Positions 50,893 through 52,442 of a stretch of DNA of 64,000 nt are shown piece after piece. Below the pieces are notes generated by a model. That model saw only the letters and a list, made by a program, of their open reading frames with translations. It searched no databases and was not told where the DNA came from. The position numbers were made by a program, and so were the translations under genes. Source of the stretch: Escherichia coli O127:H6 str. E2348/69 (GTDB lineage: Bacteria; Pseudomonadota; Gammaproteobacteria; Enterobacterales; Enterobacteriaceae). The DNA is taken from the NCBI RefSeq assembly GCF_000026545.1, contig NC_011601.1; one strand, given 5' to 3'. Numbering within the stretch: position 1 is the first letter of the stretch; the number at the start of each line of letters is the position of its first letter.

Positions 50893-52442
50893 CTGTCTCT
50901 TATACACAAATCCCCACCCGGGGATTTGTGATGTCTGTCAGTCTGCTTTAGGGGGACTCTTTCCATCCGGTAGTTTCCTTCCTCCCCGGCAGCGATTTTT
51001 TGAACTTTTTCCTCACCTGTTGATCTTCTCTTATATTTCATTTCCTTCGGGTCTGTTATGGTACTTTCTGATTGTTATTCATGGGCTAACGAGCAGTTTG
51101 GACATGCCCGTCTCGGTGATCCGCGTCGTACACGACGCCTTGTGTCACTGGCCTCTTCTCTCGCTCAGCATGCAGGTCTTTCTATTGTGAAATCATCCCA
51201 GTCCACTGCTCAGGTTGAAGGTGCGTACCGCCTGATACGTAACCCGTCTGTGTCCCCGCAAGCCATTGCCGAAGCCGGATTTACCGCCACTGTAAGGGCA
51301 TGTGAGGCTCATCCGCTGCTCCTCGCGCTGGAAGACACCACCACCATTAACTTCAGTCACAGTACGGCATCTGATGACCTGGGGAATACCACCACTAACC
51401 CGAAGACGCGCGGGCTGCTGGCTCACTCTGTCCTGATGTACGCCCCCGACAGCGCCCTGCCAGTCGGTCTTATCGAACAGCAGCGCTGGAGTCGTGCCAC
51501 GGACACCTACGGTGTTAAGCACCAGCGAAAAGAACGTCCCTATGAAGAAAAAGAAAGTTACCGCTGGCAGCAGGCTTCGGAGCGCATGGCCGAATGGCTG
51601 GGGGAGATACAGAAACGGGTAATCACTGTCTGTGACCGGGAAGCGGATATCTGGCATTACCTGCATTATAAAGTCAGCCACGGGCAGCGCTTCGTGGTGC
51701 GTGCAGCACAGAATCGCCGGCTGGAAGAAGCACCCGGCAAGCTCTTCGAACTGCCGGAAGTCCTGGCAACCGCGGGAAGCCACACGCTGAATGTGATGCA
51801 AAAAGGCGGGCGGGCAGCCCGCCAGGCCCGGATGTTCATCAGTTACAGCGAAGTCAGCATAAAAAATCCCGACAACAGCGGCCAGGCGCTCCCGCTCACG
51901 TATGTCTGTTGCCGGGAGCAGGCAGAGGACGGCGCCTGCTGGCATCTGCTGACGTCAGAAAAAGTGGCGAGTGCCGCCGATGCGCGACGTATCGTCAGCC
52001 ATTACGAGCGACGCTGGCTGATAGAGGAATACCACAAGGCGTGGAAAAGTGGTGGTACATGTGTGGAATCGCTGCGAATGCAGACCCGGGATAACCTCGA
52101 GCGCATGGTGGTTATCAAGGCGTTTATCGCGGTGCGGGTGCTGGGCCTGCGGCAGGGCGGTATCAGTGAAGAAACACAAAATGACAGCTGTGAGAAAATA
52201 CTGACGCCGACAGAGTGGAAACTGCTGTGGGTTAAGCTGGAAGGAAAACCGCTTCCGTCACAGATGCCGACACTGAAATGGGCCTGTCTGAAACTGGCGA
52301 AACTGGGGCGATGGCATGACAGCAAACGCACCGGTCGCCCCGGTTGGGTAGTCATGTGGGATGGCTGGTTCAGACTTCAGGATATGGTTGAGGGTTACCT
52401 GGTGATGAAGTCTCTTGATCAGGAGATCTGATCAAGAGACAG
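50893..52442 (+). mobile_element. IS4-family (IS50-like) insertion sequence, ~1550 bp
   Basis: 19-bp terminal repeats ctgtctcttatacacaaat (50893..50911) and agatctgatcaagagacag (52424..52442, reverse complement ctgtctcttgatcagatct); one transposase ORF; perfect 8-bp direct repeat ccgcccgg at 50885..50892 and 52443..52450. Confidence 0.9.
51058..52431 (+). CDS. IS4-family DDE transposase (Tn5 Tnp-like)
   Basis: 457-aa ORF alignable by eye to Tn5 transposase: LEDTT, VCDREADI and C-terminal YERRWLIEEYHKAWK (YREK signature) all present. Confidence 0.9.
   Translation: MVLSDCYSWANEQFGHARLGDPRRTRRLVSLASSLAQHAGLSIVKSSQSTAQVEGAYRLIRNPSVSPQAIAEAGFTATVRACEAHPLLLALEDTTTINFSHSTASDDLGNTTTNPKTRGLLAHSVLMYAPDSALPVGLIEQQRWSRATDTYGVKHQRKERPYEEKESYRWQQASERMAEWLGEIQKRVITVCDREADIWHYLHYKVSHGQRFVVRAAQNRRLEEAPGKLFELPEVLATAGSHTLNVMQKGGRAARQARMFISYSEVSIKNPDNSGQALPLTYVCCREQAEDGACWHLLTSEKVASAADARRIVSHYERRWLIEEYHKAWKSGGTCVESLRMQTRDNLERMVVIKAFIAVRVLGLRQGGISEETQNDSCEKILTPTEWKLLWVKLEGKPLPSQMPTLKWACLKLAKLGRWHDSKRTGRPGWVVMWDGWFRLQDMVEGYLVMKSLDQEI

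Follow-up and report, generated by a model that had tools for sequence, protein, structure and literature searches.

The IS4 family of insertion sequences is defined by a DDE transposase that is encoded in a single ORF and carries the Y-(2)-R-(3)-E-(6)-K signature, and 5'-NT extremities are typical of its IS10 and IS50 subgroups (PMC2266710). Targeting of palindromes by insertion sequences includes ISRm22, an IS4 family element with REP targets, as well as IS1397 and ISKpn1, which use palindromic units (PMC1525189). The window analyzed here, a stretch of 64,000 nucleotides from Escherichia coli O127:H6 str. E2348/69 (contig NC_011601.1), contains a complete 1550 bp element of the IS50 subgroup in which an earlier note had described an intact and potentially active transposase. 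The element is ISEc13 itself and therefore already known, as all of its 1550 nt are identical to ISEc13 copies of E2348/69. The protein WP_000244363.1, "IS4-like element ISEc13 family transposase", is the annotation at the same coordinates in NZ_LT827011.1 (EPEC O127:H6 E2348/69), where the gene is flanked by ybaY and an MGMT-family gene (atl/ybaZ), and four INSDC entries derived from the original E2348/69 genome give the exact 457-aa protein the name "transposase of ISEc13" (e.g., CAS07937.1).

Boundaries and non-coding features of the element

Direct repeats border the element on both sides (Table 1), and joining its flanks with a single 8-bp copy reproduced the empty site of 5394 E. coli genomes. 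The target duplication is thus intact as the earlier note had claimed, although its length is 8 bp and not 9 bp; a Tn5-like duplication of 9 bp was expected here and was ruled out, since the repeat is exactly 8 bp and a boundary shift of 1 base leaves no direct repeat. Such a length suits the IS4 family, IS50 subgroup, in which target duplications span roughly one turn of the helix (about 8-10 bp). Both terminal repeats, likewise described as intact, are present, but they form a dissimilar pair made up of an outside-end-like left end and a right end identical to the inside end. Each of the two end sequences occurs once in the window compared to zero occurrences expected by chance. They have their first nine terminal bases perfectly in common and 13 of 19 bases overall, an asymmetry such as that between the Tn5 outside and inside ends, and both begin with CTGTCTCTT (5'-CT), in agreement with the 5'-NT extremity of the IS4 family, IS50 subgroup.

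The sequence TTATACACA lies within the left end at 50900-50908 (IS nt 8-16) and matches the DnaA box contained in the outside end of Tn5. Along with GATC at IS nt 130, 1525, 1533, and 1538, it completes the Tn5-type Dam/DnaA sequence features, and by analogy with Tn5, Dam and DnaA may modulate ISEc13 via the conserved GATC sites and the DnaA box. The GATC sites at IS nt 1525, 1533, and 1538 all fall in the 13-bp inverted repeat at the right end, the RNA fold of which had a z-score of -3.5. At the opposite end, the 11-bp inverted repeat appeared in the minimum-free-energy fold of the leader and may constitute a putative barrier against read-through from ybaY. The stability of the leader fold did not differ significantly from that of shuffled sequence (z = -1.45), and fold-back control by the leader, the left-end palindrome aside, is not claimed. 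A scan of 50700-52700, including the 165-nt leader, identified no sigma-70 consensus promoter, and its terminator-like hits were located on the minus strand inside the ORF. No clear Shine-Dalgarno sequence was found 5' of the transposase ATG, and the sole match of an Rfam scan of 50000-53500 was the neighboring ffs (4.5S RNA), with none within the element.

Table 1. Coordinates of the ISEc13 element between ybaY and atl, its terminal and coding features, and its target site (window positions).
Feature	Position	Strand	Remark
ISEc13 element	50893-52442	+	IS4 family, IS50 subgroup; 100% nt identity over 1550 bp
Left target site duplication, 8 bp, CCGCCCGG	50885-50892		Identical to 52443-52450
Right target site duplication, 8 bp, CCGCCCGG	52443-52450		Identical to 50885-50892
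Left terminal 19 bp, CTGTCTCTTATACACAAAT	50893-50911	+	17/19 vs Tn5 outside end
Right terminal 19 bp, CTGTCTCTTGATCAGATCT (reverse complement)	52424-52442	-	19/19 vs Tn5/IS50 inside end, two Dam sites included
Perfect 11-bp inverted repeat, 4-nt spacer (CACAAATCCCC ACCC GGGGATTTGTG)	50905-50930	+	Overlaps left end, extends inward
GATC (Dam) site	51022-51025		IS nt 130, in the 165-nt leader 5' of the start codon
Perfect 13-bp inverted repeat, 5-nt loop	52410-52440		Right end plus inward-facing copy of right end
Transposase gene, 457 aa plus stop	51058-52431	+	ORF uninterrupted
Catalytic codon D93	51334-51336	+	Tn5 alignment
Catalytic codon D193	51634-51636	+	Tn5 alignment
Catalytic codon E323	52024-52026	+	Tn5 alignment
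Codon 180, TGG (Trp)	51595-51597	+	R180W; Arg in WP_000244358.1, the widespread ISEc13 protein
Split palindrome, left arm AACCCTCTCC	50877-50886		Partner GGAGAGGGTT at 52449-52458
Target half-site CCTCT	50880-50884		Between convergent ybaY and atl
Target half-site AGAGG	52451-52455		Between convergent ybaY and atl

The transposase and its residue 180

The ORF of 457 codons was confirmed to be uninterrupted, and its product contains the complete N-terminal DNA-binding domain (PF14706, matched over 1-58/58) and the DDE domain (PF01609), with NCBIfam NF033590 scoring 511 bits against a cut-off of 160. The Pfam Tn5 dimerization domain scored 24.1 bits, below its cut-off of 26.7, and the region nevertheless lies inside the direct alignment with Tn5. 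A phmmer search against solved structures returned the Tn5 transposase (4dm0 and 1muh; E = 7e-83), aligning residues 6-453 of the query with Tn5 9-469, and the two proteins have 42% identity. Retention of the Tn5 catalytic triad and of the YREK signature, proposed in the earlier note, was borne out by this alignment: Tn5 D97 maps to D93 (in LEDTT), D188 to D193 (in VCDREADI), and E326 to E323 (the first E of IEEYHK), while Y319, R322, and K333 map to Y316, R319, and K330. The YREK motif Y316-R319-E323-K330 is consequently complete with the spacing 2/3/6 of the IS4 family. In an alignment of 110 diverse full-length homologues taken from 50%-identity clusters, the catalytic and YREK columns were invariant apart from one column at 109/110. 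Every testable feature of the IS4 family, IS50 subgroup was found in the ISEc13 element. The copy in the window is separated from a variant with 98% identity by 18 synonymous as against 8 non-synonymous changes, a pattern indicative of purifying selection acting on the transposase.

The Inh start of Tn5, M56, aligns with Q52 (codon CAG), and the ISEc13 transposase has no Met between residues 2 and 126. The earlier remark that a corresponding Met is missing is correct at the level of the sequence and at the same time unremarkable, as Met occupies this column in only 2 of the 110 homologues and the lack of an Inh start is therefore the norm of the family instead of a peculiarity of ISEc13. An unrelated internal start is possible at the in-frame GTG codons 29, 44, and 65, where ribosome-binding sequences are weak at best.

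The copy in the window carries Trp at position 180 where Arg is found in WP_000244358.1, in the 98% variant, and in Tn5 (R175). The copy could accordingly be structurally intact and enzymatically crippled by a lineage-specific R180W substitution, leaving it passive and mobilized, if at all, by R180 copies. The replaced Arg is the commonest residue of the family at this position (52 of 110 homologues) and lies 13 residues ahead of the catalytic D193, which speaks for such an effect, whereas the column also tolerates L (15), A (13), G (6), K, and H, so that a knock-out by R180W is possible yet not expected. The W180 allele was furthermore present at at least five loci in two sub-haplotypes (L001/L003 and L002/L005/L007), arguing that W180 elements moved several times after the mutation arose. 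Tn5-type transposases act preferentially in cis, and we consider a crippled enzyme improbable. The exact allele at codon 180 is itself uncertain, because CP059840.2, another assembly of the same strain, reads CGG (R180) at the same ybaY/atl locus. None of the copies in CP059840.2 matched the W180 (T) allele, and the discrepancy between the assemblies reflects either repeat polishing in one of them or gene conversion between stocks.

Copy number, mobility, and history of the ybaY/atl insertion

Queries with the full element and with its middle 400 bp both identified 29, 27, and 30 places in the three E2348/69 chromosomes (LT827011, LT903847, and CP059840.2, respectively) plus two on pMAR2. Queries with the terminal 150 bp found 27-29 places for the left end and 28-31 for the right end in the three chromosomes, of which one or two may be ybaY flank instead of an IS end. 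The near-equal counts for left end, middle, and right end indicate that most copies are full length, and a single fixed copy with degraded ends elsewhere, the situation that the earlier note had held against mobility, does not describe E2348/69. At 32 places per genome, the count in this strain is the highest of all 5426 complete E. coli genomes, and 873 of these contain at least one ISEc13 copy covering at least 80% of the element. Copies and many fragments were also identified on conjugative plasmids of Escherichia, Shigella, and Salmonella.

The exact 457-aa protein is encoded at four different E2348/69 loci. A prophage copy (L003) differs from the copy in the window at none of the 1550 nt, while L002 and L005 differ by 2 nt, and copies from unrelated strains and sites differ from one another by 0-5 nt. 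The L003 prophage insertion was present in all three E2348/69 assemblies and only in these. In comparison with other E2348/69 copies, the copy in the window is altered at two positions of the leader, IS nt 126 and 152. Alleles at IS nt 126, 152, and 703 were mosaic among the copies, which suggests gene conversion or assembly effects and means that the identity between copies may partly reflect conversion and not fresh transposition. This identity constitutes good evidence for recent transposition, short of proof. One pMAR2 copy was without a target duplication. In CP148541.1, two inverted ISEc13 copies had exchanged their target duplications, indicating an inversion of ~60 kb by recombination between the copies and supporting the potential for rearrangements that had been put forward for this element.

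The copy is most likely, with a probability of roughly 0.85, a complete ISEc13 with a Tn5-type DDE transposase that is transposition-competent or at least mobilizable, because ISEc13 has expanded to ~30 near-identical copies in E2348/69. In analogy to Tn5, the transposase would bind two dissimilar 19-bp ends, the left one outside-end-like and the right one inside-end-identical, and form a dimeric synaptic complex, from which ISEc13 would be excised via hairpin intermediates in a cut-and-paste reaction and inserted with an 8-bp stagger. The ybaY/atl copy landed in the loop of a GC-rich palindrome common to the convergent ybaY and atl genes that fits CCCCT-N8-AGGGG. The earlier view of a probably recent and mobile copy agrees with the 27-30 chromosomal places, the two places on pMAR2, the identical L003 copy, and the 5394 empty sites. 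The interpretation of an intact transposase is therefore supported as far as sequence comparison reaches, with the 8-bp duplication, the dissimilar ends, and R180W as corrections.

The insertion divides the palindrome AACCCTCTCC-GCCC-GGAGAGGGTT and leaves both the ybaY and the atl coding sequences untouched. Among the 5426 E. coli genomes, the ybaY/atl site was empty in 5394 and occupied in 13, always in the same orientation and never in the opposite one. The single orientation raises an alternative in which the insertion is old, vertically inherited, and fixed at its site, with the identity between copies stemming from gene conversion and not from recent movement. Such a history would also account for the mosaic haplotypes and for the seven occupied genomes that carry a single copy, of the 98% variant, at ybaY/atl, and no close relative was found whose flanks are 100% identical around an empty site and by which the insertion could be dated. 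However, three IS sequence types are represented among the 13 occupied genomes, and the one in SCU-115 recurs without any difference at unrelated sites of other strains. The right flank of E2348/69 diverges by ~3% from that of the other occupied strains, and the empty site prevails in 5394 genomes. In addition, the strict target consensus occurs once in the 62,442 bp of the window as reconstructed without the insertion, namely at the occupied site, as would fit a hot spot that is hit repeatedly, and another hot spot, mog/satP, was struck in both orientations. An old, fixed insertion is accordingly unlikely.

An intact ORF is also what a domesticated, transposase-derived host gene outside any mobile element would show, and nothing further pointed to this origin. 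Against it, the gene lies inside Tn5-type ends bordered by a target duplication, occurs in multiple copies at variable sites on chromosomes and plasmids, and is absent from the ybaY/atl locus in 99% of E. coli genomes, making domestication exceedingly improbable. A complete and mobile or mobilizable ISEc13 remains the preferred reading, and its importance lies mainly in correct annotation and in the effect of IS-mediated inversions and deletions on how stable the genomes of E2348/69 stocks are.

Target preference and comparison with known systems

Insertion sites whose duplication is exactly 8 bp were drawn from E2348/69 and other strains, and all 14 distinct ones had C at positions -4 and -2 and G at +10 and +12, giving the ISEc13 target consensus CCCCT-N8-AGGGG in which N8 denotes the duplicated 8 bp between the arms. 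Further sites had a duplication of 9 bp (L015, L019, L021, L022, and L028) or an apparent 7 bp (L017) and lie between similar C-rich and G-rich arms, such that a palindromic C-rich/G-rich target is common to all sites flanked by a duplication. The opposite orientations at mog/satP were found in two strains. Relatives sharing the right-end 31-mer were identified in Serratia, Budvicia, Rahnella, Salmonella diarizonae, and other Escherichia species, and in nearly every case a G-run half-site lies at a distance of ~8-11 bp from the end, frequently within repeated palindromic units. Recognition of a pure hairpin structure had weaker support than recognition of sequence, as complementarity of the arms often does not extend past the 5-bp half-sites (for example at L002, L003, L016, and L020).

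The target pattern looks real in the present data. No published account of an ISEc13 target consensus was found, the element being absent from titles and abstracts of the literature using the term and unmentioned in the IS4-family review and its supplements (PMC2266710). The consensus may be the sole potentially new part of these results. A tentative reading, which we hold to be possible but not probable, is that ISEc13 and its relatives in Serratia, Budvicia, Rahnella, and Salmonella are naturally site-selective members of the Tn5 transposase family with a transposase-encoded specificity undescribed so far. Such site selection may direct insertion, staggered by 8 bp, to the spacer between the C-run and G-run arms of a palindrome, in practice the intergenic hairpins of terminators or REP-like sequences. 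A natural Tn5 relative with the same inside end, a palindromic target, and an 8-bp stagger could help to explain how Tn5-type transpososomes choose their targets, and ISEc13 illustrates a route to ~30 copies that mostly spares genes by landing in intergenic terminator-like palindromes.

Compared to the catalogued ISEc13, no difference was found at the level of the element, and the copy in the window is set apart by R180W relative to WP_000244358.1. IS50/Tn5 (1MUH, 1MUS, and 4DM0) has the same domain order, a near full-length alignment, and the same DDE and YREK residues; in addition, Tn5 W298, R210, R30, and R62 are retained in ISEc13 as W295, R215, R27, and R58. The right end of ISEc13 equals the Tn5 inside end at 19/19 positions including the Dam sites and its left end agrees with the outside end at 17/19, DnaA-box sequence included. 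Transposition of ISEc13 must employ one end of the outside type and one of the inside type, as it does for IS50 itself. The two systems differ in the target duplication (8 bp at most ISEc13 sites compared to 9 bp in Tn5) and in target choice, where the strong palindromic consensus of ISEc13 contrasts with the weak one of Tn5, which inserts almost at random. ISEc13 also has Q52 in place of the Met of the Inh start, with only this Tn5-specific start missing, a leader of 165 nt compared to about 92 nt, and a transposase of 457 aa compared to 477 aa.

Symmetric targets are likewise known from IS231A, which uses GGG-N5-CCC, and from IS186, which uses a G-run/C-run. ISEc13 resembles IS231A, IS186, ISRm22, IS1397, and ISKpn1 in preferring a symmetric target, in a dimeric transpososome, and in clustering in intergenic palindromes or terminators, whereas it differs in that its target has the C-run first and then the G-run, with the duplicated 8 bp between the arms.

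Occupancy and allelic variation at the ybaY/atl site

Among 5426 E. coli genomes, an ISEc13 copy filled the ybaY/atl intergenic site in 13 (hits H43-H55), with identical orientation throughout and none inserted the opposite way round. These insertions fell into three ISEc13 sequence types: that of E2348/69; the common one, seen in SCU-115, A25, and DCE7; and a 98% variant, which was the sole copy in seven genomes. This repeated occupancy may reflect either an orientation-biased hot spot or shared ancestry. The ffs gene coding for 4.5S RNA (signal recognition particle RNA; Rfam RF00169, 68 bits) was identified 489 bp beyond the element's right end.

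Codon 180 of the transposase gene at this site was TGG (Trp) in the window and in the E2348/69 assemblies LT827011 and LT903847, and CGG (Arg) in the same copy of CP059840.2 (L030), an assembly of the same strain in which no ISEc13 copy carried the T allele. The disagreement reflects either smoothing during repeat polishing or gene conversion from one IS copy to another. Across ISEc13 copies, the alleles found at IS nt 126, 152, and 703 (the last within codon 180) formed a mosaic.

Coordinates of features at the ybaY/atl site and of other ISEc13 copies
Feature	Sequence	Coordinates	Description
Target arms and duplications	Window	50877-50892 and 52443-52458	
Left palindrome	Window	50905-50930	11 bp, 4-nt spacer; just inside left end
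Codon 180	Window	51595-51597	
Right-end palindrome	Window	52410-52440	13 bp, 5-nt loop; inside-type end plus inward copy of same
ffs	Window	52931-53027	
L030	NZ_CP059840.2	3725971-3728120	ybaY/atl copy
L026	CP148541.1	2304717-2307290	ISEc13 copy
L027	CP148541.1	2365194-2367767	ISEc13 copy

Terminal palindromes and relatives sharing the right end

Both ISEc13 ends held a perfect short palindrome that might substitute for a terminator destroyed by insertion or stop read-through into the element. The 31-nt right-end sequence, including its inward inverted copy, was shared without mismatch by elements from several further Enterobacterales (L031-L053), comprising Serratia silvae, Budvicia aquatica, Rahnella spp., Serratia proteamaculans, Escherichia whittamii, and Salmonella diarizonae. 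Several copies in S. silvae and B. aquatica adjoined near-identical flanks, suggesting that these copies had inserted into palindromic, REP-like repeat units.

Recombination between copies and target preference

In strain CP148541.1, the 8-bp target duplications CTCCCCAA and CGAACCAG were exchanged between the two inverted ISEc13 copies L026 and L027, and this swap indicates a ~60-kb chromosomal inversion via recombination between them. The pMAR2 copy likewise lacked a duplication.

The target consensus drawn from loci L001-L029 was strong and palindromic, CCCCT-[8-bp duplication]-AGGGG, with C at -4 and -2 and G at +10 and +12 in all 14 distinct sites having an exact 8-bp duplication. The reconstructed 62-kb pre-insertion window contained a single strict match to this consensus, the occupied ybaY/atl site itself. 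The ISEc13 duplication was 8 bp long in most sites and 9 bp in five, compared to the 9 bp duplication of Tn5.
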